The position numbers were made by a program, and so were the translations under genes. A stretch of 64,000 nt of DNA from an uncultured Chloroflexia bacterium (lineage in GTDB: Bacteria > Chloroflexota > Limnocylindria > Limnocylindrales > CSP1-4): NCBI GenBank assembly GCA_963791725.1, contig CAWBTQ010000003.1:10516-74515 (forward strand), written 5' to 3'. Below, piece by piece: positions 23,441-44,766 of this stretch (within the stretch, counting starts at the first letter, position 1; every line of letters starts with the position of its first letter). Below the pieces are notes generated by a model. That model had not been told where the DNA came from and searched no databases. It saw only the letters and a program-made list of their open reading frames with translations.

Positions 23441-23678
23441 GTGCTCGTTCTGATGACATTTCTGCACGCTAGCCAACGACGGCATCGCCCCACCGGTGCT
23501 CGCGGTCGCGGCCTCCGACGACTTATGAGCCGTTCGGCACTTGCGTAGCTGGCATCAGACCGAATGCTGGCGCGCGGACGGGGAGCTATGACGTGCGGCC
23601 TTAACAGCTGCCGCCGGGACTGCGCCGAGCCACTGGCAAGACCTACCGGCACGCCGCCGAACGGAGAGGGGCCGGGTA

Positions 23679-27716: not shown

Positions 27717-29702
27717 TCAGGCCGCTCCGGCACAGTCGTAGAGCTGGCTGTTGACGGAGCTCACTACCTTGCAGCTGGCCGCCAGCCAGGCCGTGCGCTC
27801 GCTGGCTGTGGAATCACTGGCGGCGCCGCCGAAGCCACCACCGCCCATGCCTCCGCCCGCAAGGATGAACCTCAGCTTGCCCGAGGCCACGTAGCTCTTG
27901 AGCTGGTCGAGGGTCGGCGTCGGATCGGATCCGGTGAAGCCGCCCATGGCCATCACCGGTAGACCGGTGGTCAGCTCGATGGTGCCCGCATCCTGGGCCG
28001 AGTTGATGGCCACGATCCAGGTGGCCGTGCCGCGGTTGGCGACGAGATAGTCGAGCAGCGCCGAGTCGACTCCGTTCCCGGCCGGTCCCCCCGCAGAGAG
28101 GCCCGATGCCGCTCCGCCGGGGTTGCCGCCGGCAAGGCCAGGACCGCCGGCGAGTCCGCCGAACCCGCCCGGGGTGCCGCCGATGCCGCTCGCGGTACCG
28201 GGTCCCGGATGCGGGTCGCCGCCGCCATAGGCGTTGCCCGTCGTGGCCACGGCATACGCGGCGGGCGCAAGCAGAGTGGCGACGATGCCGAACCCGGCCG
28301 CCGCAAGCGCGATTCGCCTGGCCACGGGCCTTTCGGCTAGACGCGGCAGCGAAGTGGCCGCCAGCACGACGAGCGCCAGCGCGGCCAGAGCGATCGCCAC
28401 GGGACCCAGGCCGTGGGCGAAGCCGGGCGTCCGATCCAGCAGCGTCGCGCCAAACCAGGCCGAGCCCAGGCAGGCGATGCCGACGCCGATCCCACCGAGC
28501 CAGATCCGGGCACGGCTCTTCCAGATGTCCACCAGCCCGGCTCCGACGAGCGCACCGATGGCCGGCGCGAGGGCAACTGCGTAGTAGGAGTGGATGATCC
28601 CCGACATGTAGCTGAAGACGATCGCCGTGACGACGAACCAGCTGCCCCACAGCAGGTAGCCCGCGAGGGCAATGTCGGTCCGATGAGCCCAGCGGCGTCG
28701 GAAGAGGCCGACCAGGAGACACACGATCGCGAGCGGGATGAGCCAGGCGATCTGGCCGAACATCTCGTCGTTGAAGAGCCGCAGCAGCCCGACGTCGCCG
28801 CTGAAGCCCCCGCCGCCAGCAACGCCGCCACCGGATCCGCCGGATCCAAAGATCCGGCCGAGCCCGTCGTAGCCGAAGATCAGGTCGAGCGCGGAGCCAG
28901 AAGTGCTGCCGCCGATGAACGGCTTGCCCGCGACCGGCAACAGCTCGACGATGGCCACCCACCAGCCGCTCGCTATGAGCACGGTCGCAAGGGCCAGGCC
29001 GAGCCCGACGATCCTGCGGCGCAGGGTCGTGTTTGCCGAGAAGCCGAAGACGAGCGCGTAGCCAGGCAGGACGAGATACGCCTGCAGGTACTTCGTCAGG
29101 AAGGCCAGGCCGACGCAGCCTGCGGCGAACGCCATCCAGCGGTAGCTGCCGTTCTCGAGGGAGCGGAGAAGCGCCCAGGCCGAGACGACGAGCAGCAGGG
29201 TAAGCAGCGCGTCCGGGTTGTTGAAGCGGAACATCAGGACTGCGGCCGGCGTCAGAGCCGTCACGATCGCGGCGATCGTGGCCGCGACCGGCCCGAAGGA
29301 CCGCTTCACCGCCATGAACAGGACGCCGACCGTGGCCACTCCGGCCAGGGCTTCCGGCAGGAGGATGCTCCACGAGCTCAAGCCGAACAGGCGTACCGAC
29401 AGACCCATCAGCATGGTGCTGAGGGGCGGCTTGTCGACCGTGATGAAGTTCGCGGCGTCGAAGCTGCCGAAGAACCAGGCCGACCAGCTCTTCGCGGCCG
29501 AAAGCGCCGCGGCCGAGTAGTAAGTGTTGGCGTAGCCGCTCACCGTGAGGTTCCAGATGTAGAGCACCGCGGCCAAGGCCAGCACCCCGGCGAAGGCCGG
29601 TCTGACCCATGTGGCTTCCTCCTCGCTGCCTCGGACCAGGCTCCGCAGCCTTCCTACGGGCCGAAATCTCGGCACGAAGGCGGGTCTGGTTACGGCAGTC
29701 AT
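27717..29702 (-). CDS. GT-C glycosyltransferase, family 39 / PMT_2 (ArnT-like) integral membrane protein
   Basis: 661 aa. About 12 TM. N-terminal DxD-like loop (FITVDKPPLSTMLMGLSVRLFG) typical of PMT/ArnT transferases. Gly-rich periplasmic C-terminus. Confidence 0.85.
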   Translation of the reverse strand: MTAVTRPAFVPRFRPVGRLRSLVRGSEEEATWVRPAFAGVLALAAVLYIWNLTVSGYANTYYSAAALSAAKSWSAWFFGSFDAANFITVDKPPLSTMLMGLSVRLFGLSSWSILLPEALAGVATVGVLFMAVKRSFGPVAATIAAIVTALTPAAVLMFRFNNPDALLTLLLVVSAWALLRSLENGSYRWMAFAAGCVGLAFLTKYLQAYLVLPGYALVFGFSANTTLRRRIVGLGLALATVLIASGWWVAIVELLPVAGKPFIGGSTSGSALDLIFGYDGLGRIFGSGGSGGGVAGGGGFSGDVGLLRLFNDEMFGQIAWLIPLAIVCLLVGLFRRRWAHRTDIALAGYLLWGSWFVVTAIVFSYMSGIIHSYYAVALAPAIGALVGAGLVDIWKSRARIWLGGIGVGIACLGSAWFGATLLDRTPGFAHGLGPVAIALAALALVVLAATSLPRLAERPVARRIALAAAGFGIVATLLAPAAYAVATTGNAYGGGDPHPGPGTASGIGGTPGGFGGLAGGPGLAGGNPGGAASGLSAGGPAGNGVDSALLDYLVANRGTATWIVAINSAQDAGTIELTTGLPVMAMGGFTGSDPTPTLDQLKSYVASGKLRFILAGGGMGGGGFGGAASDSTASERTAWLAASCKVVSSVNSQLYDCAGAA

Positions 29703-30172
29703 GGTCGGGTCCTTTCCACCGTTGAGAGCGTGGTCAACGGGAGCTGGTACGGGGCCGGCGCGCGACCGTCTCGCGGCCGATCTATGGCCATTCGCAGGAG
29801 CAGGAACCGGACGACGGTCGCGGCGGCGTTGGCGATGACGAGTACGCCGATCTCGGCCAGTCGGCCATGGTTGGGCGCGACGGCTCCGACGATGGCGAGG
29901 GAGACGGAGGTGAAGGCCAGCGCGGCGCCCAGGGCGACGACGCCGGCGGCGTGGTCGCGGGCCATGCTCCGGCGGCCACGGACGGCGAAGGTCATCCGGC
30001 GGTTGGCTGCCGTGTTGGCGACGGCCGTCACCAGGAGGGCGGCCGCGTTGGCCAACGCCGCGGGCGCCAGCTCGCGCAGCCCCGCATAGAGCACGACATA
30101 GGCCGCGGTGCTGGCGAGCCCGATCGCTCCGAAGGTGGCGAGCTGCCTGAGGATTCTGCAGTTCGATGCCAT
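29699..30172 (-). CDS. GtrA-family small membrane protein (polyprenol-phosphate-sugar flippase-associated)
   Basis: 4 TM, GtrA-like pattern. The stop overlaps the GT39 start (ATGA at 29699-29702). Start MASNCRIL (30172) or 30193. Confidence 0.75.
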   Translation of the reverse strand: MASNCRILRQLATFGAIGLASTAAYVVLYAGLRELAPAALANAAALLVTAVANTAANRRMTFAVRGRRSMARDHAAGVVALGAALAFTSVSLAIVGAVAPNHGRLAEIGVLVIANAAATVVRFLLLRMAIDRPRDGRAPAPYQLPLTTLSTVERTRP

Positions 30173-30454
30173 ACCCGAAGTCTCGGCGGGCATTCTTGCG
30201 ATCTGGTTACGTGCGTCTCGCGCCGGGCTAGCGCTGCGGTGGCGCGGGAACCCCCGGCTCGCGCGCAGAAATCAGTAGCGGCGCGACTGCGGATGCGGAC
30301 CCAACTCAATGTTGGCTGAGGCGCCACCGCCCACCGCCCGTCTAGCGAACGGATCCCCCTCGCGGGGCTCTGTAGACTGCGGGCGAGATCGACCGGCCAG
30401 GAGAAAGACGCTAACGAGCCTCCTGGCCTGGCGGCAGCAGCAGGCCAGGCTCGC

Positions 30455-32380
30455 CTAGGCTGGGTTCGGAGTGTGTCGTCGAACCGGAGCCCTCGCCAGG
30501 GCGGATCCGCCCAACGAACGCCGACCCGGTGCGTTCTGCAGCAGGAGCAGCAGGCTGGGCACGACGACCGGAACGAGCAGGAAGAGGATCGGCAGATACG
30601 GATCCGGCGAACTCGGCGGGAGCGGTACGACGTCCGCAGGACTCGCAGTCGTGATCACCAGCTGCGGCGGGTTTGCTCCCTCGCGCGAGGATAGTGAGAC
30701 GGCCGTGCTGTTCGTCGTCGAGATGCCGAAGCTGACCAGCCCGTTGCCTGTCACCGCGGAAGTCACGTCAGCGCTGGTCCACGATCCGGTCGTTATGGGG
30801 CCCGAGCTGCCGAGCTGAGCGCCGAAAGGCGGAGCATTGGCGTCGGTGATCGTGGTTTCGCCCCAGGTCGTGTCGGCGACCGAGTAGGCGTTGTAGCCGG
30901 TCGATTGGGCGCTGTTGGCCCAGATGCGCAACGTGGCGTTGGTCACGGTGCCGCCGATGCCCGACACGTTGAAGCGCAAGAACGAGCGGACTGTCGGCGA
31001 GCCATCTATTCGGATCTGGGTGGAGGTGCCGAAGTTGGCCCCTGGGTTGGAGGCGTCGACGTAGCTGTCGGCGACGGGCGTGAAAGTCGATGCGGCCACG
31101 ATCGGAGTCGGCGTGGGCGTCGCGACCGGCGTCGGCGTGGGAGCCGGCGTCGGAGTCGGAGTCGGTGCGGGGGTCGGCGTGGCCAAGGGCGTGGGCGTCG
31201 GAGTCGGAGTCGGTGCGGGGGTCGGTGTGGCCAAGGGCGTGGGCGTCGGAGTCGGAGTCGGTGCGGGGGTCGGCGTGGCCAAGGGCGTGGGCGTTGGAGT
31301 CGGCGTTGGAGTCGGCATGGGACCGGCGCTATGGCAGGTCGCGGAGCCGCTGTCTGTAAACGAACCCACGGCCGGCTTGAAGCTCCAGTCGTAGCTGCCC
31401 TGATGCAGAGTCAACGCCAGGATTCCGAAGGTGTTCGTGTTACGAACGATGCTGTTGGGGGCGATCGAGGAGATTGAAGTGTGGTCAGCGCCACCGGTGC
31501 CGACCGTGATTTCGACGATGCCGTTCGTCGGATCGAGTGCGCCCGTCGGCGACTGCGGCGCGAAGCGCTCGTAGATGTGGTCGTGGCCGTCGAGGATCAC
31601 GTCGGCGTGGGCCGCGTATAGCTGCTGCCAGAACGACTTTGAGTTGTTGTTCGCCCGGCCCCCCGAGCTGAACAACGGGATGTGCCAGTACGCCAGAGTG
31701 CACTGGTTGGGGTGAGCGGCGAGGTCCGCGGCTAACCACTTGCCCTGAGGAGAACTGGCCGAGCAGCCGCCGGCGCTGGCGCAGTTGGTGTTGAGCGCGA
31801 TCAAGTGCCAGGACCCCACATCGAAGCTGTAGTAGCCCTGGCCCTGAACGCCCGCGGCGGACCCGAAGTAGGTGAAATAGCCCGCCGCATTGGTGTTGGA
31901 GCTGTCGCAGCCCGTCGATGGCTTCGAGCCTCCAGAGGTCAGATACTCGTGGTTGCCGACCACGGGATGGGTGATGGCTTTCACCTGGCCCCAGCTCGGG
32001 TCGTACGACTGCTGGAACGCGGCCAGACTGCCGCAGTAGTACTGGTTATCGCCAAGCGCCAGCACGGCCGCAAAGCCACCGCTCGCGAGTTGAGCCGCGG
32101 TCGCCCTCTGTTGGCAGACGCTGCTGGTGGCCCCATTGAAGTGGGCGTCGGCAGGATCGCAAGCGATGTCGCCCGCCGCGGCGACGGTGGGATCTCCGGC
32201 CGCAGCCACGGGACGTGCCACGAACGGCCCGGCGGCAATCCAGGCCACCACCAACAGCCCAGCCACGGCGAGCCGCATCCACCCGACCCACCAACCCGTC
32301 AGGCCGGCTCGCCGGCCTTTTGCCTTCCCGGCCAGCGAAGCAAGTTCGGGCAGGCGTGGCACGACGGCGATTGGGCTCAT
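30455..32380 (-). CDS. exported calcineurin-like metallophosphoesterase, with Pro/Thr linker, DNRLRE-like carbohydrate-binding-type domain and C-terminal TM anchor
   Basis: 641 aa. MPE motifs [26 protein letters not shown] ~75-aa [14 protein letters not shown] linker. Beta domain ...[20 protein letters not shown].... Hydrophobic tail [19 protein letters not shown] then GRR. Confidence 0.8.
31100..31330. repeat. ~48-bp tandem DNA repeat (about 4 copies) encoding the PT linker of the metallophosphoesterase
   Basis: Repeated GGCGTGGGCGTCGGAGTCGGAGTCGGTGCGGGGGTCGG(C/T)GTGGCCAAGG units on the plus strand. Antisense reading gives the GVGVGAGVG ORFs in the track. Confidence 0.7.
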
Positions 32381-32908
32381 GGTCCCTCTTCTGCTCGAGG
32401 CAGCCGGTGGGTCGCCCTACCCGCAGGCGCCGGAGCCCAAGCGGTTTCGGATATTAGAGTTGAGACGTAACAATTAGAAGCGGCCCGATCGCATTCGGAC
32501 CGCCCGTCCTACCAGGTGGTCTGGCCGATCCACGGTCCGGGCGCGCCTGCCCAAACTCGGTTCCGGTGGGACCCGGTGTACGGGTCTAACGGAGGGAGCG
32601 GCGGATTGCCGCGCGTTCGCAAACGTCATCGCCCGCGCAGGTGAGATCGTCCCTGAGCAAGCGCAATACGGCTGTCGGGTAGGGTCCGCAAGGGAACCTC
32701 TGCCAATGGGTGGTTGACGCCCCGGAGCTCCGCCCGGAACGCTTGATAGCCCGAGCGGCCCGACAGCCGGGACGATCGGCCGGAGGTTGGCGTCGCACAG
32801 AGTCCAGATCGAGACTCTGACGGCCCAGCACGGCACGCAGTCCACCACGACAGAAGCGTGCGCCGCAGGCCCGACGCTCCGAACAATGGCCGCTCGCGGG
32901 AGGTCCAA

Positions 32909-34012: not shown

Positions 34013-34227
34013 TCGGGCCCGAGCCGGCAATCAGCGAGACGCCCTGCCTTTAGTGGTGGGGCTAGACATCCCTGATTTGGGTGGCTCAGGGTAGGGATCC
34101 TTCCACCTGTCGGGACGGGTACCCACCCCAGGGTCTCAAAGCGGGAACAGCGGTCGTAAGGGGGTCGCCTTAGGGAGTAGATTGCCGCCTTCTGAAGCCC
34201 ATCCCGGTCCATTGGAGGATGCTCCGC

Positions 34228-34986: not shown

Positions 34987-35140
34987 TCATTCCGCACCAG
35001 CTCAACGGACTGTGTGAATAGATCAACGGAAACCGTGAGCCGCGCCGCTGGCGGAATGGAGGACCCGGCGGCCAAAAGTCAAGTTTCGAATTCATTGCGT
35101 CCCAAATCGCCGCCAGCTGCACTCATTCGGGGGTCACATC

Positions 35141-38100
35141 ATGAAGGTCCAAACACTCAGCAGGGCCGGGCTTCCTACCTGGCCCCGACTGGCCATCCTG
35201 GCCAGGTTCCTCATCGTCGGACTCACCGGCATCGCCGTAAACGAGCTGGTGTACGTCCTCATGGTTCACGATCTGGCAATCTGGTTCGTCGTCGCGGCGA
35301 TCGCCTCGACGGAGGCCTCCACGACGTGGAACTTCCTGGGCAACGAGCTGTGGGCGTTTTCCGGTCGGCGCCTCGTGGGTCCCGCCTGGGCTCGATACCT
35401 GGCGTACGCCGGCATGAACAACGCCATGCTCCTGCTACGCGTACCGATGCTCTGGCTGCTGTCCGACTTCGGCCGCCTCGGGCCGGCCTCGGCCAACCTG
35501 ATAGCCCTCGGGGCGCTGTTCGCCATGCGCTTCGCGCTCTCGGACGGATTGGTCTGGCGCCAAAAGGGCGCGAGCGCCTACGACGCGGTGGACTCGACCG
35601 GGGAGCCTGCGCAAGCCTACCGCTATGACATTGGTGGCCTGTTGAGGCTCGATTCCGACTCCGAGTTGCCGGAGCTCGCGTACTTCCGCACGGCCGCGGT
35701 TACCCCGCCCGACATAAGGATCAGAACTCGCCGTGTGGCATCCATCCCCACGACGCGCGTCCGACTTCGACGGGATGGCGACCGGGTCACGTACCGCGAG
35801 CACCTGGGCATCCTGGGCGCGGACTTCAACGTGACCATGGGAAAGACGATCGACGTCGAGGCTTCGCAGCTTCTTTCCCTGTCGCGGCATGTCCTCTACA
35901 CCAACGTGGTCGAGGCGCTGCTCCGATTCGTGCTCGTGTCGAAGGGCTACGTTCTGCTCCACTCCGCGGGTCTCGACGTGGAAGGGCGGGCGACACTGCT
36001 CTCCGCGCAGACCGATACCGGCAAGACGAGCACGGTCATCAACCTGGTCCGCGAACGCCACTGGCGCTTCATCTCCGACGACATGGCGATCATCGACCCG
36101 GCGGGCTTCGTTAGGACCTTCCCCAAGCCGATGACGCTGTCCTACCACACCATGACTCGGGCAGTGGACGCCAGCAGCCTGACTCCCAGCAAGCGGATAC
36201 AGCTGCAGGTCCAGAGCCGTGTCCACTCCAAGAGCGGTCGCTCGGTCGGCAAGGGACTCGGCACCCTAAATGTGCCGATCATGTCGATCAACAGCGTCCT
36301 TCAGATCATGGTTCCGCCGCCTAAGTACCACATCACCTCCTTGCTTCCGGCGCACATCGCGACGGAGTCGCCCATCGCCAACGTCTTCCTGATGGAGCGA
36401 GGTGAGCCCCTACAGGAGCGCGTTCCTCTCGAGGCGGCAATCGACCAGCTCATCGAGAACACCGACGACGCGTACGGCTTCCCGCCATTCGCCGCCCTGG
36501 CGCCTCATTTCGTGATCGACGGCGCGGACTACCCGGCGTTGCGCGCGCGCGAGCGCGAACTCCTGACGACGGCGATGAAGAACGCCTCGATCTGGCGGCT
36601 GCGAGTTCGCGGCCACGAGTGGGGCGAACTGCTGCCGAAGCTGATCCTCGGCGAGCAGCGCGAACTGGTCGGCATTCCTATCGAGATTGACGAGCGCGAG
36701 CCGGTCGGCATTCCCATCGAGACCGGCGAGCGCGATCTGGTCGGCATTCCTGTTCCGGCCGGAGGAATGACTGCTGAATCAGCCGGAGGGCCTTCGCGCC
36801 CTTTTTCCTCTCGCCGCCAGCCCCCGGAGACGCGTGCCAGTCACGGACTGGCGTACCCCGACGCGGGGCCGGGCGGGATTAGCAACTTCAAGGCGAGCGT
36901 GCCCGGCCCGACGAATCGGGCGCGTCGTCGCACATTCGAGTCCGGCCCGCCTCGCGGAACGGCTTCACGAAACGTGGGCGCTCAATCTGCGGCCGCCGCG
37001 GCAGTCGCTGTCGGTCCAGTCCCGGGCTGGGGGCTGCGCGGCGGTCTCCCTCTGGTACCGAACCTGATTGCCCTCCGGGAACGAGTCGAGCAGCGCCTTC
37101 GCATCGATACTCGTTTGTGGGTCACGCTGGGCGTAATCATCCTCGCGGGAGCCGCCGTCCGGCTCTGGGCGATCGGTTCGGTAGGCTTCAACAACGACGA
37201 AGCGGTCTATACGGGGCAGGGCGCCTCGTTGGCCGCAGACCCAACATACAGCGCTCTGTTCGCCATCTTCCGCGCTCATCCGCTGCTTGTGCAGTTCCTG
37301 TATTCCATCTCGTTTCGCCTCTTCGGAGTGAACGATGTCACCCCTCGGCTGATCTCGATCGCGTTTGGCCTGGGCGGCATCGGCCTCGTCTACGCGGCCG
37401 GCTCCGTCCTGTACAGCCGCAGGGTCGGGCTGATAGCCGCCGCCATCCTGGCGCTCATGCCTTACCACGTGATCGTCACCCGTCAAGCCTTGTTGGACGG
37501 GCCCGAAACCACACTCTTCCTGCTGAGCATGTACATGCTCGCTCGCTTCGCTCGCGGAGGAGACTCTCGCTGGCTGTACAGCGCGGCATTTACGACAGGC
37601 CTCACGGTGCTCGCCAAGGAGACGGCTGTACTGATCGTTCCGGTGGCCGTCACCTTCCTGCTTCTGGCGCCGGAGATCCGTATGCTCCTGCGCCAACAAC
37701 TCCTCGCAATCGGGCTCTTCTTCCTGGCAGTCGTGCCGTATCCGGCCGCGATCCTCATCGGTAAGGGGGGCGGTGCCGCTCAGTCTTTCTTCCTGTGGGA
37801 GGTCCTCCGCCAGCCGAACCACACATGGACTTTCTACGCCGACGTGCTGCCGGGTGCCGTAGGTCCGCTCGTCTTCCTGGCGGGCGTAGCGGGGCTCCTG
37901 TTCGCGGTCCGCCGAGGGCGCTGGGAGGACCGGCTGATCATCAGCTGGGTCGCCGTGCCGGTGGCATTCTTCGAAATCTGGCCGGTCAAAGGCTTTCAGT
38001 ATCTTCTGCCAATCGCCCCGGCCCTCGCGATTCTCGCCGGCGTGAGCTTCGACCGGTTGATTCAGACAGCCGAGCGTGTCCCCCAGAGGCCGAGCAACGA

Positions 38101-38698
38101 GGCAGCGGTCGAGTCCTCCGCGATCGCGGGGTACCCGGTCGAGGAACCGCGGCCGTGGCGCATACGCCTCCCCAGGGTGCCGCGCGCGGTTGCCGTCGGG
38201 GCGAGTGCCCTCCTTCTCGCCGTGACTATGGCGAGCATCGCGGTGCCGACGGTCCTGGCTGTGAACACGACTTCCATGAGCGGCTCACTGGCCGGTACGG
38301 GAGGACTGCCCGGTGGCCGCGACGCCGGTTTGTGGATCCGAGAGCACGTTCCCCAGGGCGGCGTCTTCCTGACCACCGGCCCGACGCTGGCCAACATCAT
38401 CGAGTTTTACGGACAGAGACAGGCATACGGCCTGTCCGTCAGCCCCAACCCGCTGCGGCGCAATCCGGCCTACGACCCCGTCGTGAATCCGGACCGTTCG
38501 CTCCAGCTCAACAAGATCCAGTACATCGCGACCGACATCTGGTCCACCCAGCGCTCGCCCTTCTTCGACAAGCTGCTGAGAACCTACATCGCCAGGTTCC
38601 ACGGGGTGCTGGTCTACCGGCAGCCGGCCGAGGTCCGCGATGCATCGGGCAACATCTCGAACCAGTTCGTCATCCAAATCTACGAGGTCAGGCCATGA
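35141..38698 (+). CDS. tri-domain fusion: GtrA-like (aa 1-~140) + HprK/P-like P-loop kinase domain (aa ~200-430) + GT39/PMT_2 GT-C glycosyltransferase (aa ~610-1185)
   Basis: Single 1185-aa frame. GtrA 4-TM N-terminus. Middle [47 protein letters not shown] aligns with the HPr-kinase C-terminal P-loop (LHGvlvdvyGvGvLitGdSGvGKSE...rGHrLvaDD). Three 12-aa VGIPIE repeats follow. Then the ~12-TM ArnT/PMT-like domain with periplasmic tail. Confidence 0.75.
36662..36762. repeat. 3 x 36-bp in-frame tandem repeat (encodes E/D-x-VGIPIE-x-x-ERE linker between kinase-like and GT-C domains)
   Basis: gaactggtcggcattcctatcgagattgacgagcgc / gagccggtcggcattcccatcgagaccggcgagcgc / gatctggtcggcattcctgttccggcc. 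Confidence 0.6.
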
Positions 38699-40191
38699 AG
38701 GGGCCCGCCCCCTTCTGGCGCTCGCTCGGGCGTCGCCCGCTCATCGTGCGTGCCGGCGCGGTGGGGATCGCAGTCGCCCTCTCGGCGGCCCCTCTCATCT
38801 TTGTCGCGCCTGTGGCGGCAGCAACCAAACCGATACAGCATTTGATCTTCTTGATGCAGGAGAACCACACCTTCGACAACTACTTCTCGGCCTTCCCGGG
38901 CGTCGACGCGCCTCCGAGTTCGACGTGCGAACCGAACTGGATACCGAGCCCGAGCCCCGCGCCGACGCTCCCGCCGACGCCAGCCCCGAGCTCTTCGGCA
39001 GGCCCCACGCCGACGCCCAAGCCGACATCGAAGTCCAGGGCGACGCCCAGCGCGCCGCCAAGTCCCACACCCGCTCCCACGGTGCAGTCGGCGACTGCGT
39101 GCTTCACGAGATTCCATCTTTCCAGCCACCGGACTGTGGACCTCAACCACGGCGCCGATGCGGCGCGCAAGGCTCTTGACGACGGTGCGATGGACGGCTT
39201 CTCGGCCGCACAGGGCCAATACGGCTTACCGACCGACCTGCCGATGGGCTATTACGACGGCTCGGATCTCCCGCTCTACTACAACCTGGCCAGCGATTAC
39301 GTACTCGCGCAACGTTTCTTCAGTTCCGCCATGGGCTCGAGCGACATCAATCACATGTACTCGGTCGCGGCCCGTGGAGGCGGACCTCTGCCCGCTACCG
39401 GCTACGAGTTCGATACCATCTTCGACCGCCTTGAGGCCGCCGGGGTTTCGTGGAAGTTTTACGTCCAGGGATACGACCCCTCGATCAACTTCCGCAATCA
39501 CAGCCCGACCGATCCGAAGGCCGCTCAGCTTATCTGGACGCCGCTGCTCGACTTCTCCCGCTTCATCGACGACCCGGCGCTGGCGTCGCATATCGTCGAC
39601 CTTCAGCAGTACTACACGGATCTGCAAACCGGCCATCTGCCGGCGGTGGCCTACCTTGTCCCGAGCGGCCTGTCGGAGCATCCGCCCGGAGACATCACTT
39701 CCGGCCAGACGTTCGCAGTGTCGACGGCGACTTCGTTGATGCGCAGCACGGCGTGGGACAGCAGTTTCTTTGTGGTCACGTGGGATGACTGGGGCGGCTG
39801 GTACGACCACGTTACCCCGCCGCAGGTGGACAACGATGGCTACGGCTTCAGGGTCCCGGCCATCTTCGTTTCGCCGTACGCGCGTTCCGGAACAATCGAC
39901 AACACGACCTACGACTTCACCTCGATCCTCAAGTTCATCGAGGACAACTGGTCGCTGCAACCGCTCACGGCCCGCGACGCGACCGCCAACAGCATTGCCG
40001 ATGCGCTCGATCTGAGCCGGGCCCCGGCTGCGCCGGTCTTCCCGGCTCAGACGTACCCCGTCAAACCCTCGTTCGATACGCAAAACAGGCCCGTGCTGCT
40101 TGCGATGTACGGCGCCTTCGTCGCCTTTGCGGTCATCTGCGGCGCGTTCCTGCTGCGGCCCCGGCGGCGCCAGGCTCTCAAGGGAACGTGA
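38695..40191 (+). CDS. phosphoesterase-family protein (PF04185: non-haemolytic phospholipase C / acid phosphatase AcpA-like), exported with C-terminal TM anchor
   Basis: Hallmark [15 protein letters not shown]. Start ATG overlaps the fusion-gene stop (ATGA at 38695-38698). Pro/Thr/Ser-rich insertion. C-terminal [22 protein letters not shown] then RPRRR. The track ORF 37795..40191 is a 5' over-extension. Confidence 0.8.
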
Positions 40192-40200
40192 GGTCCATCG

Positions 40201-41664
40201 ATGGCTGAACGCCGTTCCACGTCGCGCGCGAAACGCCGGCTCGCGCATCTGGCCGTCACGTCGGCTCTCGCCCTGGCGGTCGCAATCCCCCTCGCTCCGG
40301 CGGCTGCGGCCGAGTCGGCAGACGCTACCCTAACGGCGGTCGCAGCCGGCGCGCTTGCTCCCGTGTCCGTTGTTCATCACACGAAGTCCGTCGCGACGAT
40401 CGCGACGATTGGCACGTCCCTTTCGGTTCAGGTTCCCTCTGGGAGCGTGATCGGCAAGGACGTCGACATCTCTACGGTCCTGCGCAACCGGTCTGGCCAG
40501 CCCCTGGCCGGCGAGCACGTGTCGCTCCTTCTGGACGGGGCCCCGATCCGCAGCGACAAGACGGACCCTCACGGCGCCATCACCTTCACCATACCCGGCA
40601 AGAGTCTGGCTGAGGCGCGCGCCTATGCGCTCGTGGTCGAATTCGGCGGGGCCCGCGGCCTGGCGCCGTCGATCGCGAAGGCCACTCTCACCATCCTTGC
40701 GGCTGCGATCCAGATTCAGACTGTCCCGCCGCTGGCCAACATCAGATTCACCCTGGGCCCCGAGGCCGCCACGACCGGCCCGGACGGCGTGGCTGCTCTG
40801 CCCATCCCCAAGACGGGGAGTTACGCCCTTACGGCCGACCTGAATCCCGACAACTCACCTGCGGCTACGGTCAGGGCCAGCTTCGTGCGCTGGCTCGACA
40901 ACGTCTACACCGCCAACCGCAATATCGACGTCTCCGGGCCGGCCACCTACGTGATAGGCCTCCGCGTGGCATACCGAGCCTCGATCCGGTATGTCGACCT
41001 CGACAACAATCCGGTCGATCCGGCCCTCATCGATCAGGCCTCGTTCAGCGCCGGCATCGGCACCGACGACGTAATCCTCAGCTCGCAGACGAAAGCCAAC
41101 GACGTCTGGTGGACGGCCGCTACGACGGTCCGCATCAGCACGTCGCTGACTGCGTCACCGGTCACCTATCGGGCCCTGTCGGTCAAGATCCACGGCGCCG
41201 ACGTGGTCAACCGAGGCCAGCAAGCTTGGACGCCGACCGAAAACGGGGAATGGACGGTCCAGTTGCTCTTGTACACCATGACAGTGCGGGCCACGGACGC
41301 GATATTCGGCACGCCCGTCTCCGGACAGCTGCGGCTGACTTATCCCGACGGGGCATCTGTCGAGCAGCACGTCGCTTCGGATGGACGCATCGCGTTCGCG
41401 AATCTCCCACGCGGCCAGTACCAGCTTGGGATCAGCCCATCGGTGTTCTCACCGCCAACTCCGGTCGCGTTGTCGCGACCCCAGGAGGCGATCATCAGAG
41501 TGATCACCTACCTGGACGCCATCCTGGTGACGCTAGCCCTCCTCCTGGTCACGCTGCTGCTGGTCGTCATCGGTCGCTGGCCCGTGGTCCAACCGGTTCT
41601 TCGGCGTCTGTCGCGGCGTATGTCGGACAGACTCAACAGGCTCGCCAGAGAGTTCACTTCATAG
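40201..41664 (+). CDS. exported hypothetical protein with C-terminal TM anchor (Ig/transthyretin-like beta repeats)
   Basis: Signal peptide ...ALALAVAIPLAPAAAAES. Repeated beta-sandwich-like segments. TM LVTLALLLVTLLLVVIG near the C-terminus. Confidence 0.55.
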   Translation: MAERRSTSRAKRRLAHLAVTSALALAVAIPLAPAAAAESADATLTAVAAGALAPVSVVHHTKSVATIATIGTSLSVQVPSGSVIGKDVDISTVLRNRSGQPLAGEHVSLLLDGAPIRSDKTDPHGAITFTIPGKSLAEARAYALVVEFGGARGLAPSIAKATLTILAAAIQIQTVPPLANIRFTLGPEAATTGPDGVAALPIPKTGSYALTADLNPDNSPAATVRASFVRWLDNVYTANRNIDVSGPATYVIGLRVAYRASIRYVDLDNNPVDPALIDQASFSAGIGTDDVILSSQTKANDVWWTAATTVRISTSLTASPVTYRALSVKIHGADVVNRGQQAWTPTENGEWTVQLLLYTMTVRATDAIFGTPVSGQLRLTYPDGASVEQHVASDGRIAFANLPRGQYQLGISPSVFSPPTPVALSRPQEAIIRVITYLDAILVTLALLLVTLLLVVIGRWPVVQPVLRRLSRRMSDRLNRLAREFTS

Positions 41665-41679
41665 CCTCGGAAAAGTGCG

Positions 41680-42927
41680 ATGCAGCTTCCGCGATCGAAG
41701 AACGCCGGCCTGGCAGGGGCGATACCAATCATCTTCGTGCTCGCGGGCGCGCTGAGCACGCTCGGTCTGGCCGGGTCCCCGCACCCGTCCCCAAGTCCGA
41801 CGGCAGCCGCAGGGCCGACCCCCGTGCTGGCCTATTACTACATGTGGTTTGGCACCGCCAGCTGGACCCATGCCAAGACCGACCTGCCGGCTCTCGGGGC
41901 CTACACGAGCACGGATCCGGCCATCATCCGGCAGCAAGTGACGTGGGCCCGTGAATCGGGGGTGGACGCCTTCATCGCTTCGTGGAAGAGCACGCCCTCC
42001 CTGAACACGGCCCTCTCCGAGCTGGTAGCCGAATGCCATCGCCAGGGTCTCAAGCTGGTCCTCATATACGAGGGCCTGGACGTCAACCGCAATCCGATCC
42101 CAGCCTCCACTGTGAAGGCCGACCTGCTCGCGTTCGAGGACCAATACGGTTCGGATCCGGTCTTTCAGCTCTTCGGCAAGCCGGTCGTCATCTGGTCGGG
42201 CAGCTGGGCATTCAGCGATGCGGACATCTCAGCCATCCGAAGCAGCCTGGGAGCGCCGGACAAGCTCCTGCTGCTCGGTTCCGAAAAGAGCGGGGCGGCC
42301 TACACCGCCCGGGCCGGCTTGTTCGACGGCGACGCCTACTACTGGTCATCGGGAGATCCTCTCGCGACCCCCGGCTACCAGACGCGACTGACCCAGCTTT
42401 CAGCCTCGGTTCACGCCGCCCACGGCCTGTGGCTCGCTCCCGCCTCGGCCGGGTACGACGGCCGTCTGAATGGCGGAACGACGGTTGTCGACAGGCGCGA
42501 CGGCGCGACGTTGAGGTCGGCCTGGTCCGATGCGTTGGCCACGAAGCCGGACGGAGTTGCGCTGATCAGCTGGAACGAGTACACGGAGAACTCCTACGTC
42601 GAGCCGAGCCGGGACTTCGGCATGCGCTACCTTCAAGTCCTGTCCGGCATCACGGGAGCACCGGGACCGCCGACCGGAATCGCGCCAGCGGCGGGCACTC
42701 TGCCGCCGACCACGGCCCCTCTACTGACGGCGCAGTCCCCCGGCGCAACGTCGCGGCCAAATGCCTACGACGCGACCGCCTTGCTCGTGGCCGGGCTGAT
42801 CCTCGGGCTTCTGGCCCTGCTCGGTTTCAGCCTTAGACGCAATGACGCCCGCTCCGGATCGCGCGCAGATGGAACTCAGAGCGAGTTGGGCCGCCAGTCC
42901 GATTCGCCCGGTGGACGTTTCCGATGA
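41680..42927 (+). CDS. glycoside hydrolase family 99-like protein (putative endo-alpha-mannosidase), signal anchor + C-terminal TM
   Basis: GH99-type start VLAYYYMWFGTASW. Core ...DAFIASWKS..., ...LISWNEYTENSYVEP.... C-terminal TM LLVAGLILGLLALLGF. Confidence 0.6.
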   Translation: MQLPRSKNAGLAGAIPIIFVLAGALSTLGLAGSPHPSPSPTAAAGPTPVLAYYYMWFGTASWTHAKTDLPALGAYTSTDPAIIRQQVTWARESGVDAFIASWKSTPSLNTALSELVAECHRQGLKLVLIYEGLDVNRNPIPASTVKADLLAFEDQYGSDPVFQLFGKPVVIWSGSWAFSDADISAIRSSLGAPDKLLLLGSEKSGAAYTARAGLFDGDAYYWSSGDPLATPGYQTRLTQLSASVHAAHGLWLAPASAGYDGRLNGGTTVVDRRDGATLRSAWSDALATKPDGVALISWNEYTENSYVEPSRDFGMRYLQVLSGITGAPGPPTGIAPAAGTLPPTTAPLLTAQSPGATSRPNAYDATALLVAGLILGLLALLGFSLRRNDARSGSRADGTQSELGRQSDSPGGRFR

Positions 42928-43532
42928 TCCGGCGGCACCGTCGGGGGATATTCGGCGCCGGGGTCGTGGTCGTGCTTGCCGCCTTCATCTCAGTCTGGGC
43001 CCTGCCCAACGTCGCGGGAGCCGCATTCGTCAGCGTCCGCGCCATCGTCTCGCCGACGCTCGCATCGGGCGGACCGACCGTGGTGGTAGGCGGCGAGCGG
43101 GCGGTCCAGGCGAGCGCGGTGAACATAGCGGTCGAGATCGACAATGGCTACCCGCTGTCGGTTGTCCTGGGGACGGGGCCAACTCCATATCAGGCAGCGG
43201 TGTACCGCCGCGACAACGCCGGCCACCTGACCCGTGTCTGGCAGGTGGGCTCGGGCGACCCGACCGTGGAGGAAGGCTCCGATTCGCCGGTCGGCGGCGG
43301 CCCCTCGGGCGGGGCGGTGGTCGTGCCTCCGGGGTCATCCCGGCATTCCATCACCGATGCCTCGACAACTTTCGCCCTCTCATCCGCGGGCGATCGCAGC
43401 CCTGGCCCCGGCGTCTACTACGTTCGCGTTTGGGCTTACGGGATCGGCAGCTCGCTCGTGCCGATGGCACTGGACGGCGGGGTCGACCCGCTGGGGACGC
43501 CCAGCGAACTACCGGTCGCGCCTGCGGTCTGA
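42924..43532 (+). CDS. exported hypothetical protein
   Basis: The start overlaps the previous stop (ATGA). N-terminal TM/signal GAGVVVVLAAFISVWALP. 202 aa. Confidence 0.5.
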   Translation: MIRRHRRGIFGAGVVVVLAAFISVWALPNVAGAAFVSVRAIVSPTLASGGPTVVVGGERAVQASAVNIAVEIDNGYPLSVVLGTGPTPYQAAVYRRDNAGHLTRVWQVGSGDPTVEEGSDSPVGGGPSGGAVVVPPGSSRHSITDASTTFALSSAGDRSPGPGVYYVRVWAYGIGSSLVPMALDGGVDPLGTPSELPVAPAV

Positions 43533-43560
43533 CCGCTTCCGCCCCGGCCGGGTCCGGCCG

Positions 43561-44766
43561 TCACTGGCCTGGCGAGACCCTCGTCACCCAGTAGGCCGTC
43601 CGATCCAGGTATGCGTCGGGAGCCTCCGAAGCCGCCCGGCCGTAGGCGCCACCGTATCCGGTATAGGTTCGCGCCCCGGCCGCGAAGTCGACCGCCGGCT
43701 CGATCTGAGTGCCCTCGTGCCATTCGTTGAACGAGGTCACGCTAACCCACTCGGCGCCGGCCGCGACGACCCCTTGCCACATGGCGTCGTAGCGGGCGCC
43801 GTTGTCTCTTGCCACGAACTGCTGACCCGTGGCCACGGCCTGGCTATTGTCGAACCCGGGACTGACGCTCGGGCTGCAGATGAGTCTGGCGGCCCGGCAG
43901 TCCGCCACGAGACCCGCGAGCGCGGCAGGCGACGCCATCGGGTCGTACGTGTAGACGCCGTCCGCCCCCACCCTGGCGGCGGTGGAAGCCTTCGGCGAGT
44001 GAACCAGGACGATGGCGTCGTCCTGAGTCCGGCGAAGCCCGGCGATCGCCACTTTGAGGGCCGCCACCGGCAGCCTGCTGCTACCGAATAGATAGAAGAC
44101 CGCGCGAGGAGAGGTGGTTTCGCTCGCGGCAGTCGGCCGTGACACGCGCAAGAGGGCCGGCGACGAACCGAACCGGCCGAGAAGATAACGGATGTCAGAC
44201 GCCACCGAACCCGCGGTCTGGCCCTGGTAGGGCTCGATATGGAAGGCGATCTTGATGCCATTGGCCGCGGCGGCGCTGAAGACCGCATCGAGCGATCTGT
44301 CTTCCCATGACCCAACCCCCCACCAGCTGACCGCAATCGCACCGACCCTTGCCTGGCGCAACTCGGCCATCTGCGACTGCAGCACGAGGGGGTCGCGCGA
44401 AGAGTACGGCCCACGCTCCGGATAGAAGGACGACGCGATGTTGTCGGGCGGCACGTGCTCGAGCTGGTTCCAGTGTCGCCACGCCCCGTCGCCGGCAGGG
44501 GTCCCGTACCACACGTAGAAGAAGGCGGTCACGGCCGTCGATGGGGCCGGAACTGTCGTCGGGCTGGCAACGGGGGTGGCGCTCGCTTGGGTGCTCACCG
44601 GCGCGATCAGGAGCGTGGGCGTGATCGAGCTCGACGAAGTCGGCGGGTTGCTCGGCGGTTGCGTGCCGCAGGAAGCCGCCACCAGCGCGGCAAGCAGAGC
44701 CAGGGCGAAGCGGGCGAGACGTGCCCGACCTCGTCCGGGTCCGCTGTTTGGGAGCATCAATAACAC
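43561..44766 (-). CDS. glycoside hydrolase family 99-like lipoprotein (putative endo-alpha-1,2-mannosidase/mannanase)
   Basis: Lipobox LAALVAASCG. Motifs FFYVWYGTPAGDGAWRHW, FYPERGPYSSRD, VSWWGVGSWED, HIEPYQG, TSFNEWHEGTQIEP. Confidence 0.7.
   Translation of the reverse strand: MLLMLPNSGPGRGRARLARFALALLAALVAASCGTQPPSNPPTSSSSITPTLLIAPVSTQASATPVASPTTVPAPSTAVTAFFYVWYGTPAGDGAWRHWNQLEHVPPDNIASSFYPERGPYSSRDPLVLQSQMAELRQARVGAIAVSWWGVGSWEDRSLDAVFSAAAANGIKIAFHIEPYQGQTAGSVASDIRYLLGRFGSSPALLRVSRPTAASETTSPRAVFYLFGSSRLPVAALKVAIAGLRRTQDDAIVLVHSPKASTAARVGADGVYTYDPMASPAALAGLVADCRAARLICSPSVSPGFDNSQAVATGQQFVARDNGARYDAMWQGVVAAGAEWVSVTSFNEWHEGTQIEPAVDFAAGARTYTGYGGAYGRAASEAPDAYLDRTAYWVTRVSPGQ

Follow-up and report, generated by a model that had tools for sequence, protein, structure and literature searches.

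A conserved locus for cell-surface sugar attachment in a soil Chloroflexota genome

Known extracytoplasmic glycosylation systems are made of three parts, a GT2, a GtrA protein and a GT-C (PMC11127046). Bacterial GH99 enzymes have also been characterised; they degrade fungal alpha-mannan, and GH99 catalysis goes through the 2-hydroxyl of the -1 sugar (PMC6001782). A 17-kb stretch of a soil Chloroflexota genome, lying in the window (the whole 64,000-nucleotide stretch analysed, to which all positions refer), is a real locus for cell-surface sugar attachment. In the literature we found no studied member of its core operon and no expression or biochemical data on any member. Open reading frame calls, codon-position GC and Pfam/NCBIfam searches recovered the eleven genes of the original prediction with the coordinates and domains claimed for them. 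They are listed here with the two-component system upstream.

25453..26892, -, sensor histidine kinase (accessory), HisKA + HATPase_c, just outside the interval of the original prediction
26757..27425, -, OmpR-family response regulator (accessory), Response_reg + Trans_reg_C
27717..29702, -, GT-C of PMT_2/YkcB type (accessory pair), PMT_2 101 bits, YkcB_C 95 bits
29699..30193, -, stand-alone GtrA-family 4-TM protein, PF04138 37 bits, four hydrophobic segments
30455..32380, -, exported metallophosphoesterase, 641 aa, Metallophos 23.8 bits, CBM96 114.5 bits, DNRLRE 72.9 bits
32858..34012, +, second metallophosphoesterase, lipoprotein-like N-terminus (LWAC), Metallophos 24.3 bits
34219..34986, +, soluble GT2, catalytic domain of a DPM1/Ppm1-type polyprenyl-phosphate-hexose synthase, PF00535 92.7 bits
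35141..38698, +, fusion protein, 1185 aa: GtrA, middle domain, PMT_2
35204..35557, +, fusion domain 1, GtrA/DPMS-type 4-TM, PF04138 64.6 bits, residues 22-139
35573..36700, +, fusion domain 2, predicted cytoplasmic PEPCK/HprK-fold P-loop domain, labelled PF27840 'ScmC' in the precomputed annotation
37061..38698, +, fusion domain 3, GT-C (PMT_2/ArnT-like), PMT_2 70.5 bits, PMT (PF02366) 34.5 bits
38695..40191, +, PF04185 (PLC/AcpA-family) phosphoesterase anchored at both ends, 226 bits
40201..41664, +, type-I membrane 'stalk' protein, 487 aa: chain of Ig-like beta-sandwich domains, C-terminal TM, cytoplasmic helix
41680..42927, +, divergent GH99/GH71-like TIM-barrel enzyme (core), GH99 42 bits (gathering 33), GH71 33 bits, WbsX 29.8 bits
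42924..43532, +, 202-aa N-terminally anchored protein
43561..44766, -, canonical GH99 endo-alpha-mannosidase homologue, lipoprotein-like (VAASC) (accessory), GH99 199 bits

Arrangement and conservation of the locus

The locus has two layers, a core operon (34219-43532, + strand) and lineage-specific additions. The core runs from the DPM1-type GT2 through the fusion, the PF04185 phosphoesterase and the Ig-like stalk protein to the divergent GH99-like enzyme; the additions are the two-component system, the second GtrA/GT-C pair, the canonical GH99 and the 202-aa protein, which had no match in Pfam or NCBIfam. ATGA start/stop overlaps, read directly, occur at three junctions: between the stand-alone GtrA gene and the accessory GT-C, between the fusion and the PF04185 gene, where translational coupling had been predicted, and between the divergent GH99-like gene and that of the 202-aa protein. 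Hydropathy profiles gave an N-terminal signal or anchor and a C-terminal TM segment for the 641-aa phosphoesterase, the PF04185 enzyme, the stalk protein and the divergent GH99-like enzyme. The flanks are unrelated, with the OmpR-type two-component system upstream, MarR and ABC exporters downstream and miscellaneous genes elsewhere.

Loci of the core cassette are spread over Chloroflexota, Actinomycetota and Dormibacterota, and 47 related loci had enough flank for synteny counts. The deeply conserved core as counted comprised the GT2, the fusion, PF04185, the stalk protein, the divergent GH99 and a metallophosphoesterase. PF04185 lay directly downstream of the GT-C in all 47 loci, the divergent GH99-like gene was present in 46, the stalk protein in 45 and a metallophosphoesterase within 10 kb in 35. 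The pattern was the same where the P-loop domain was less than 50% identical (n=22), with PF04185 and the divergent GH99 in 22/22 and the stalk protein in 21/22. The second GtrA/GT-C pair was found in 8/47 loci, the canonical GH99 in 15/47 (all with a middle-domain identity of at least 50%) and the 202-aa protein in 16/47, in closer relatives only. The core operon is kept with hardly a change in three bacterial phyla. Dozens of distant genomes share this gene order, which puts the clustering far beyond chance; synteny holds across the three phyla down to about 36% identity, in support of the proposal that the genes form a functional unit. The reading of all 17 kb as one uniform pathway needs revision, since a deeply conserved core is combined with lineage-specific additions.

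Among the additions is the response regulator, which at 88-91% identity in five relatives is better conserved than any other gene nearby and was not assignable to PhoP or PhoB with NCBIfam; the sensor histidine kinase reached no NCBIfam equivalog and adjoins a YkcB-type GT-C in four close relatives (L005, L008, L017 and L020). The accessory GT-C has about 11 hydrophobic segments; among solved structures, ArnT comes closest to it (5EZM, E 5.9e-7).

Proposed mechanism and the identity of the sugar

We propose, with a probability of roughly 0.55, that the locus encodes a membrane-embedded machine for placing mannose, or a hexose of mannose configuration, on an acceptor at the cell surface, along with enzymes acting on the resulting product. 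The analysis shows which domains are present, that catalytic motifs are conserved, the pattern of membrane topology, where translation is coupled and that synteny extends across phyla; we infer which sugar is transferred, to what acceptor and in which order of steps, and what the P-loop domain and the phosphoesterases act on. The GT2 would make polyprenyl-phosphate-mannose at the cytoplasmic face while docked on the fusion's N-terminal GtrA/DPMS-type 4-TM domain; the lipid-linked sugar would reach the outer face, and the ArnT/PMT_2-type GT-C domain of the fusion would move it onto an extracytoplasmic acceptor. The P-loop domain, in the cytoplasm between the two membrane modules, may use ATP or PPi for a phosphoryl step whose substrate would be the carrier lipid or the lipid-linked sugar. 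At the membrane surface PF04185, the stalk protein, the anchored divergent GH99-like enzyme and CBM96-bearing metallophosphoesterases would cleave or free the product, which is probably an alpha-mannoside glycoconjugate with phosphate ester bonds. Limnocylindria-specific additions to this core are the two-component system, a second GtrA/GT-C pair and the canonical GH99 lipoprotein. The 'complete build-and-trim pathway' proposed earlier is plausible as a hypothesis.

No enzyme of the locus reached an NCBIfam equivalog threshold, and therefore no substrate is assigned. Four lines support mannose without proving it: what the GT2 most resembles among solved structures, the catalytic residues of GH99, and two domain fusions seen in relatives. 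Among solved structures the GT2 has one strong match, which is also its best, P. furiosus DPMS (5MLZ, E 3.1e-30); this agrees with its predicted DPM1/Ppm1-like nature, and GtrB was not among its matches. The GtrA domain, taken as a family profile, aligns with the TM part of 5MLZ (residues 251-373, E 2.6e-16). Both GH99-like open reading frames passed the GH99 profile search. The canonical protein matches BtGH99 (4ACY, E 1.8e-45) across the whole catalytic domain with SFNEWHEGTQIEP intact, and the divergent enzyme matches BtGH99 with E 3.5e-9. In both, the Glu-x-x-Glu catalytic pair and the conserved Tyr are retained, and these residues do not vary among 16 canonical and 52 divergent homologues; in the latter E329, E332, Y248, W124 and R301 (4ACY numbering) are invariant in 52/52. 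Two GH99 copies had been called unusual, but at 90% identity at least 1003 clusters fall in the divergent clade, which is part of nearly every cassette. P0350, a natural fusion of the stalk protein to a GH99-like domain, speaks for functional linkage. In the relatives P0099 and P0105 a mannose-6-phosphate-isomerase cupin domain (106 bits) stands at the N-terminus, which is only suggestive of mannose.

A different sugar is possible, if rather unlikely: a Gtr/Arn-like system could add glucose, an amino sugar or another residue to an envelope lipid or polymer, with the GH99/GH71-like enzyme acting on another glycan, e.g. alpha-glucan. The specificity of the GT2 is unreadable from its sequence, its NCBIfam matches being far below cutoffs and to several sugars, and ArnT is the nearest solved GT-C. 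The GH71 score of the divergent enzyme is near its GH99 score, and several loops and residues present throughout canonical GH99 are missing from its clade, with other canonical residues changed; because of these differences and the GH71 and WbsX scores, its substrate may not be an alpha-mannoside. Against another sugar stand the match of the GT2 to DPMS and not to GtrB, the strictly conserved GH99 dyad and Tyr, the cupin fusions and the recruitment of a canonical GH99 to the locus in Limnocylindria. The mannose reading has difficulties of its own. An endo-acting GH99 needs an oligosaccharide with three or more residues, which one GT-C adding one sugar cannot build alone, and no further conserved glycosyltransferases were found in the core; the ligand of the founding CBM96 is alginate, not mannan (PMC9971899).

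The acceptor and the phosphate chemistry

The profile of the fusion GT-C matched ArnT best (5EZM, E 7.9e-11), ahead of PMT1 (E 1.6e-4), and a D686-E687-A-V-Y690 motif after the first TM segment is invariant. ArnT is described as glycosylating a lipid phosphate. The earlier 'GT39' label was imprecise, as both GT-C domains are nearest ArnT (GT83) among solved structures. It is nonetheless the NCBI name of the fusion's relatives ('glycosyltransferase family 39'), which with PMT_2 and the weak PMT match would fit protein O-mannosylation, in which the GT-Cs, like PMT enzymes, modify Ser/Thr residues of exported proteins and the resulting oligomannosides are trimmed by the GH99 enzymes. Because of their long Pro/Thr/Ser linkers, proteins of the locus could themselves be among the substrates: PT- or S/T-rich stretches occur in the 641-aa phosphoesterase, the PF04185 enzyme and both GH99-like proteins, and the stalk protein could serve as a dedicated acceptor. 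The model of the stalk protein (pLDDT 86.6) matched the B. anthracis TIE protein (Foldseek E 9e-15), then pilins and adhesins. We consider O-mannosylation unlikely: ArnT is closer than PMT1, PMT2 or PMT4 to both GT-Cs, the Pfam search gave no PMT_4TMC or MIR domain, and the obligatory PF04185 and metallophosphoesterase partners and the P-loop domain would be left without explanation.

The middle domain of the fusion, which the original prediction had missed, is predicted from its AlphaFold model (pLDDT 89, pTM 0.88) to be a PEPCK/HprK-fold P-loop domain with invariant catalytic motifs. Foldseek matched the model to ATP-dependent PEPCK (E 2.5e-7, TM 0.46-0.50) and HprK/P (E 2.6e-4); among 26 to 38 homologues H274, the Walker A motif A289-x-T-D-T-G-K-T296 and D313-D314 are invariant. 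Its TIGR04352 score (30.9 bits) is far below the cutoff of 200. With a kinase fold on one side of the membrane and an AcpA-like phosphatase on the other, beside carrier-handling domains, and with PF04185 next to the GT-C in every counted locus, the proteins might instead run a self-contained carrier-lipid cycle: PF04185 would dephosphorylate polyprenyl phosphate at the outer face, the polyprenol would return inward, the P-loop kinase would re-phosphorylate it and the GT2 would re-charge it. Carrier recycling was also the original prediction's own hypothesis for the phosphoesterases. Such a cycle seems improbable, as 17 loci with the P-loop domain not fused to a GT-C had PF04185 in 0/17 within the available flank, its price would be one ATP per sugar, and the GH99-like enzyme, the stalk protein and the CBM96 phosphoesterases would go unexplained. 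To our knowledge, no PEPCK/HprK-fold enzyme acts on polyprenols.

The PF04185 protein is related to AcpA (2D1G, E 2.1e-28) and has the AcpA motif and the Ser175 equivalent. The catalytic domains of the two metallophosphoesterases are 49% identical (E 2e-84) and the genes are therefore paralogues; the second is weakly similar to purple acid phosphatases, and the 641-aa protein has a PT-repeat linker between its Metallophos domain and the CBM96/DNRLRE domain, followed by a C-terminal TM anchor; its gene contains a tandem repeat (48 nt x 3.3, 31146-31303). PF04185 enzymes and metallophosphoesterases are typical secreted phosphate scavengers. A scavenging cluster, with the exported phosphoesterases (one bearing a CBM) and the GH99 enzymes degrading foreign polymers such as teichoic acids or fungal phosphomannan beside unrelated glycosylation genes, would fit the breakdown of fungal alpha-mannan by characterised bacterial GH99 enzymes but is very improbable, because PF04185 is coupled to the GT-C fusion and stays next to it across phyla, the hydrolases are membrane-anchored and not released, and no sugar or phosphate uptake transporter was seen in the core. 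In the cultured relative Thermalbibacter longus the cassette is flanked by PHP-domain phosphoesterases; together with the Walker A, DD and His residues of the P-loop domain, the AcpA motifs of PF04185 and ArnT as the nearest solved GT-C, this phosphate theme counts for the proposed mannose-transfer mechanism.

In distant relatives the GT2 domain forms the N-terminal part of the next gene's product, giving a single polypeptide of 1300-1500 aa with GT2, GtrA, P-loop and GT-C domains. We propose that the GT2 and the GtrA domain of the locus described here have the same architecture as archaeal DPMS, split into two polypeptides.

Gene content and layout of the locus

Genes in the window were chosen from third-position GC and an ORF listing, and domains were assigned from Pfam and NCBIfam; start codons are uncertain in this high-GC genome (window G+C ~68%). 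The original prediction had set out an envelope glycan locus at 27.7-44.8 kb, and every gene that it named was recovered by Pfam and NCBIfam. The locus comprises:

27717-29702, minus strand: PMT_2/YkcB_C GT-C protein (the YkcB-type GT-C; Pfam/NCBIfam)
29699-30193, minus strand: GtrA protein (Pfam/NCBIfam)
30455-32380, minus strand: metallophosphoesterase with PT linker, CBM96/DNRLRE domain and transmembrane (TM) segment (Pfam/NCBIfam)
32858-34012, plus strand: second metallophosphoesterase (Pfam/NCBIfam)
34219-34986, plus strand: GT2 (Pfam/NCBIfam)
35141-38698, plus strand: 1185-aa fusion of GtrA domain, P-loop middle domain and GT-C domain (Pfam/NCBIfam)
38695-40191, plus strand: PF04185 phosphoesterase (Pfam/NCBIfam)
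40201-41664, plus strand: 487-aa protein without a named family
41680-42927, plus strand: GH99-like protein, 42 bits (the divergent GH99; Pfam)
42924-43532, plus strand: 202-aa protein without a named family
43561-44766, minus strand: GH99-like protein, 199 bits (the canonical GH99; Pfam)

GtrA and GT-C overlap at an ATGA, as do the fusion and the PF04185 gene, and the divergent GH99 and the 202-aa gene; gaps of 9 and 15 nt lie between the intervening genes (PF04185 to the 487-aa protein to the divergent GH99). Four exported proteins have in common an N-terminal signal or anchor and a C-terminal TM segment. The two metallophosphoesterases (30455-32380 and 32858-34012) are 49% identical (E 2e-84) and are paralogues by sequence; the two GH99-like proteins share 27% identity, and the two GT-C domains 29% over 205 residues. 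Tandem repeats encode two linkers: 31146-31303 (48 nt x 3.3, 97% identity) that of the 641-aa phosphoesterase, and 36657-36751 (36 nt x 2.6) a repeated (R)E(L/P)VGIPIE motif in the fusion, between the P-loop and GT-C domains.

The locus is flanked by an OmpR-type two-component system on one side and by MarR and ABC exporters on the other, and the remaining genes of the window are unrelated to it. Considered as a pair of Pho regulators, the two-component system reached no equivalog level, PhoB being one among many similar matches. Its response regulator (26757-27425, minus strand), beside the YkcB-type GT-C gene, shows 88-91% identity in five relatives, against 50-80% for the other locus proteins of those relatives. 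As listed, the kinase ORF shares 136 nt with the response regulator, so the start of the kinase probably lies further downstream. About 4 kb upstream of the locus, a c-di-GMP-II-GAG riboswitch aptamer (23572-23656, plus strand; Rfam 45 bits, gathering 40, E 1.5e-5) sits at the start of an ORF region, 23592-24191, without a Pfam or NCBIfam match. Two unusual domain combinations lie outside the locus: in one (15781-16620, minus strand) a MerR HTH is joined to a low-molecular-weight phosphotyrosine-phosphatase/ArsC-like domain, in the other (18052-19464, plus strand) a GNAT acetyltransferase is joined to a LigB-type extradiol dioxygenase domain.

Conservation of the core operon

Homologues of the fusion at 60-78% identity were found in MAGs of Candidatus Limnocylindrales and Chloroflexota, and in one relative of 940 kb (L001) the order is unchanged from GtrA/GT-C to MarR/ABC. 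More distant relatives, at 36-38% identity, have otherwise unrelated flanks and keep the order fusion, PF04185, unknown protein, GH99-like; a metallophosphoesterase is close by. A scan of one genome per species gave at least 587 confirmed stretches. Among the matches listed were Chloroflexota (Limnocylindria, Thermomicrobia including the cultured Thermalbibacter longus, Anaerolineae, Dehalococcoidia and Roseiflexaceae), Actinomycetota (Thermoleophilia, Acidimicrobiia and Streptosporangiaceae) and Dormibacterota. The original prediction had proposed a synteny comparison across related genomes, and gene order indeed holds in relatives across these three phyla.

We counted each gene by tblastn of all window proteins against the fetched loci (E 1e-6, 10-kb flanks), the relatives being mostly MAGs. 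The counts take in the 47 loci whose GT-C is fused and that extend 6.5 kb or more downstream; in 22 of these the P-loop domain is <50% identical to that of the window.

Table. Genes of the locus in relatives (all 47 loci; the 22 loci with a P-loop domain <50% identical)
PF04185 phosphoesterase, directly next: 47/47; 22/22
487-aa protein: 45/47; 21/22
Divergent GH99-like: 46/47; 22/22
Metallophosphoesterase: 35/47; 15/22
CBM96: 28/47; 9/22
Separate GT2 (fused in many of the remaining loci): 34/47; 16/22
Canonical GH99: 15/47; 0/22
YkcB-type GT-C: 8/47; 0/22
202-aa protein: 16/47; 0/22

These per-gene counts show a deeply conserved core operon (34219-43532), which we call the cassette where it occurs in relatives, together with lineage-specific add-ons.

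Several relatives carry variants. In four loci (L048, L049, L052 and L055) GtrA and the P-loop domain form a gene of their own, and after it come a metallophosphoesterase, CBM96, a separate GT-C, the stalk protein (487 aa in the window) and a GH99-like gene; PF04185 is absent from the flank in these four. A 71%-identical relative encodes a 516-aa CBM96-GH99 fusion (L001 5799-7349, minus strand) where the window has its phosphoesterase-CBM96 protein, so that CBM96 is swapped between a phosphoesterase and a GH99; 914-aa and 332-aa proteins without called domains lie at the same position. The cultured Streptomyces diastatochromogenes (GCA_026913215.1; L083 9001-17699) carries a cassette with a 1129-aa protein running from GtrA to GT-C, PF04185, a GH99/GH71-like protein and a purple-acid-phosphatase-like metallophosphoesterase. 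Its GH99-like ORF stops ahead of the catalytic motif, and its PF04185 ORF lacks the N-terminus, beginning at profile position 78 behind a 53-aa ORF; these incomplete ORFs suggest decay or sequencing errors, and on their account we dropped this species as a model carrier in favor of T. longus. Directly downstream of the cassette in T. longus CFH 74404 is a 1363-aa protein (L058 18739-22830, plus strand) with an N-terminal PHP phosphoesterase match, Ig/fn3 domains and a polysaccharide-lyase-like C-terminal domain, and a second PHP protein lies upstream. The PHP proteins are a third phosphoesterase superfamily associated with the cassette.

The fusion protein and its partner enzymes

Many distant relatives of the fusion have four domains (GT2, GtrA, middle domain and GT-C; 1300-1500 aa), and many actinobacterial relatives join GT2, GtrA and the middle domain in ~800 aa. 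Because distant relatives join all four, the separate GT2 of the window is a split-off first domain. Two relatives of ~920 aa (P0099 and P0105) begin with a mannose-6-phosphate-isomerase cupin domain (106 bits) ahead of GT2, GtrA and P-loop domains. Matches to NTP_transf_3 in relatives were set aside as cross-matches, since they overlap the GT2 domain and score at or below gathering.

The sole strong solved relative of the GT2 is P. furiosus DPMS (5MLZ, E 3.1e-30), and its best NCBIfam equivalog, AglJ, scored 58.5 bits against a cutoff of 325. In a family profile of the fusion, the GtrA domain matched the DPMS membrane domain (E 2.6e-16), and for the GT-C domain this one profile had its best match in ArnT (5EZM, E 7.9e-11), ahead of PMT1 and STT3. 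As a single sequence the GT-C domain had no match in the PDB, ArnT being reached by the family profile only. The 'GT39' label of the original prediction is not supported, as ArnT is the closest solved relative of both GT-Cs and Pfam reported no PMT_4TMC. Nor is assignment to the GT39 protein O-mannosyltransferases, ArnT rather than PMT1/2/4 being the nearest solved structure; PF02366 matched the fusion only (34.5 bits) and was absent from the YkcB-type protein.

The middle domain is the most conserved part of the fusion, with H274, A289-x-T-D-T-G-K-T296, D313-D314 and many further positions invariant. Foldseek with its predicted model (pLDDT 89, pTM 0.88) retrieved ATP-dependent PEP carboxykinases (E 2.5e-7, TM 0.46-0.50, probability 1.0) and HPr kinase/phosphorylase (probability 1.0). 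By this predicted fold and its His, Walker A and DD motifs, the domain belongs to the PEPCK/HprK P-loop kinase superfamily, and by topology it is cytoplasmic. The superfamily's catalytic constellation is kept, so real phosphotransfer activity is probable. Assignment to HprK-related kinase A (TIGR04352, 30.9 bits, cutoff 200) or to HPr kinase/phosphorylase (TIGR00679, 15.2 bits, cutoff 240) was rejected. The family comprises 1034 clusters at 50% identity and occurs stand-alone, with GtrA, with GT2 and GtrA, or with GT-C as well. A literature search on its name 'ScmC', alone or with HprK or ScmA/B, found nothing relevant; we take the name to be linked to the 'SynChlorMet cassette'.

The original prediction had named failure in GH99 profile searches as a refutation, and both GH99-like ORFs scored above the PF16317 gathering threshold of 33. 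The canonical GH99 reached 199.1 bits (profile positions 6-339 of 341) and aligned with BtGH99 4ACY over the whole catalytic domain (E 1.8e-45), with SFNEWHEGTQIEP intact. The divergent GH99 reached 42 bits, scored 33 bits on GH71, whose gathering threshold is 34, and 29.8 bits on WbsX, and matched BtGH99 at E 3.5e-9. We aligned 4ACY with homologues of both clades, 16 canonical and 52 divergent. E329, E332 and Y248 (4ACY numbering) are present in 16/16 canonical sequences and 52/52 divergent orthologues, the latter with the motif SWNE(F/Y)(S/T)E, and both clades also keep W124 and R301 throughout. E329, E332 and Y248 correspond to E333/E336 and the active-site Tyr Y252 of BxGH99, and the mechanism proposed for GH99 has the catalytic residues work by way of the 2-hydroxyl on the -1 sugar (PMC6001782). 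On the remaining residues and loops invariant in canonical GH99, the substrate-binding surroundings by alignment, the divergent clade departs: loops 56-61 and 70-85 are missing, W125 is replaced by K in 50/52, H152 by I/L/V, Y246 by A and H331 by S/T, and C-terminal positions 364-367 are absent or not conserved. This clade comprises at least 1003 clusters at 90% identity, nearly all annotated hypothetical. Literature searches that paired GH99 with Chloroflexi or Actinobacteria turned up no account of the cassette.

The PF04185 protein has the profile, N-terminal metal-binding motif and nucleophile position of the PLC/AcpA family: it scored 226 bits, its nearest relative is AcpA (E 2e-28), its motif QENxxFD aligned with QENNSFDRYF of AcpA, and the position of AcpA Ser175 is Ser. 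The predicted model of the 487-aa protein shows Ig-like beta-sandwiches strung in a row, together with a TM anchor, and a 730-aa relative (P0350) is a natural fusion of this Ig-like stalk to a divergent-GH99 domain (PF16317 46.9 bits). We considered CBM96 as a pointer to the glycan, and its founding member binds alginate (PMC9971899), which was of no help on the mannose question.

Proposed pathway and comparison with known systems

Our best reading, to which we give a probability of about 0.55, is fused Gtr/DPMS-type mannose transfer with a P-loop phosphoryl step and surface processing, its structural part coming from predicted models. Polyprenyl-phosphate-mannose would be made by the fused Gtr/DPMS-type system, the sugar would be transferred outside the membrane via the ArnT-like GT-C, the P-loop domain would contribute a phosphoryl step, and PF04185, the stalk and GH99-like enzyme, and the CBM96-bearing metallophosphoesterases would process the membrane-proximal product. 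Because three phosphoesterase superfamilies and a kinase-fold domain recur, phosphate esters probably belong to the substrate or product.

Protein O-mannosylation of PT-rich linkers is an alternative that keeps the sugar; the PT linker in the 641-aa metallophosphoesterase speaks for it, and the closeness of the cassette GT-C to ArnT against it. Another alternative would assign the phosphoesterases and the kinase-fold domain to a dephosphorylation/rephosphorylation cycle of the carrier lipid. The transferred sugar may also be other than mannose: the locus enzymes reached no NCBIfam equivalog cutoff, and the divergent GH99 clade resembles GH71 as well. Mannose is nevertheless supported by sequence, short of proof, since the GT2 and GtrA domain both resemble DPMS, mannose-6-phosphate-isomerase cupin domains head P0099 and P0105, the GH99 catalytic residues are strictly conserved, and a canonical GH99 was recruited to the locus. 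A scavenging cluster is disfavored because PF04185 is translationally coupled to the fusion and adjacent to it in 47/47 loci.

Beyond the mannose-transfer reading, we tentatively raise a broader proposal, which we consider rather unlikely as a whole: the core operon may be an undescribed, widespread envelope pathway of monoderm-type soil phyla, in which one polypeptide would join lipid-linked mannose synthesis, a new PEPCK/HprK-fold lipid or lipid-sugar kinase and GT-C transfer, and a new GH99 sister clade and a PLC/AcpA-type phosphoesterase would release or remodel a phosphate-linked mannoglycan. If true, the core operon would be a functional analogue, evolutionarily independent, of mycobacterial lipomannan synthesis and release. 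Soil is rich in Chloroflexota, Thermoleophilia, Acidimicrobiia and Dormibacterota, whose envelopes are poorly understood; a cassette conserved from Limnocylindria as far as Thermomicrobia and Actinomycetota points to a surface glycoconjugate that they share and that is so far undescribed. The four-domain fusion indicates a way in which charging of the carrier lipid, translocation and transfer might be tied together physically, and its invariant kinase-fold domain hints at a phosphoryl step that such systems are not known to have. In the divergent clade the residues behind the unusual GH99 mechanism are kept in a setting of biosynthesis, not catabolism, which would widen the known biology of the family.

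The closest known kind is the three-component extracytoplasmic glycosylation system, such as GtrB/GtrA/Gtr* of Shigella and Salmonella (related systems are reviewed in Kelly et al. 2024, PMC11127046). Both have a GT2 polyprenyl-phosphate-sugar synthase, a small GtrA-family membrane protein and a GT-C that are genetically linked, and all three are present, adjacent or fused, in the window and its relatives. The components here are partly or fully fused in one protein. The differences lie in the PEPCK/HprK-fold P-loop domain that separates GtrA from GT-C, in the obligatory partners downstream (PF04185, the Ig-like stalk and the GH99-like enzyme) and in the hosts, namely Chloroflexota, Actinomycetota and Dormibacterota; O-antigen is not involved, and the cassette GT2 is nearer to DPMS than to GtrB. 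With DPMS (P. furiosus 5MLZ; actinobacterial Ppm1) the cassette shares the GT2 (E 3e-30) and a GtrA-type 4-TM domain (E 2.6e-16), and distant cassette relatives carry the catalytic and membrane parts on one chain, as PfDPMS does. In the window, by contrast, these parts are separate genes, and the membrane part runs on into two further domains.

ArnT has a role on lipid phosphate. Like ArnT (GT83; 5EZM) and PMT-family (GT39) GT-Cs, the cassette GT-C has a PMT_2-type fold, an expected lipid-phosphate-sugar donor and an acidic DE-x-x-Y motif conserved after the first TM helix, although similarity is low (profile E 7.9e-11, single sequence without match) and Pfam reported neither PMT_4TMC nor MIR domains for cassette GT-Cs. 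Compared with GH99 (BtGH99 4ACY, BxGH99 4AD1, human MANEA 6ZDC), the canonical protein aligns over the whole catalytic domain with the NEWHEG motif intact, and the divergent one keeps both catalytic Glu, the Tyr, W124 and R301; unlike these enzymes, the divergent clade has a C-terminal TM anchor and is always encoded beside a GT-C, not in a polysaccharide-utilisation locus. The PEPCK/HprK superfamily (including TIGR04352, 'ScmC') shares the fold and the invariant His ... (A/G)xxxxGK(T/S) ... DD, whereas the cassette domain sits inside a glycosylation enzyme, with a membrane domain on either side of it, and the cassette shows no HPr or peptide-maturation context.

Literature searches on GtrA, GT-C or polyprenol-phosphate-mannose in Chloroflexi found no account of the cassette. 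The mycobacterial lipomannan/LAM pathway uses Ppm1, GT-C mannosyltransferases and the LamH hydrolase, which releases capsular arabinomannan. No phosphatidylinositol mannoside genes were seen in the locus, and the hydrolase is GH76 there and GH99-like here. The likeness would be one of concept: a polyprenyl-phosphate-mannose donor, GT-C polymerisers, and an endo-mannanase that frees or remodels a lipid-anchored mannan.
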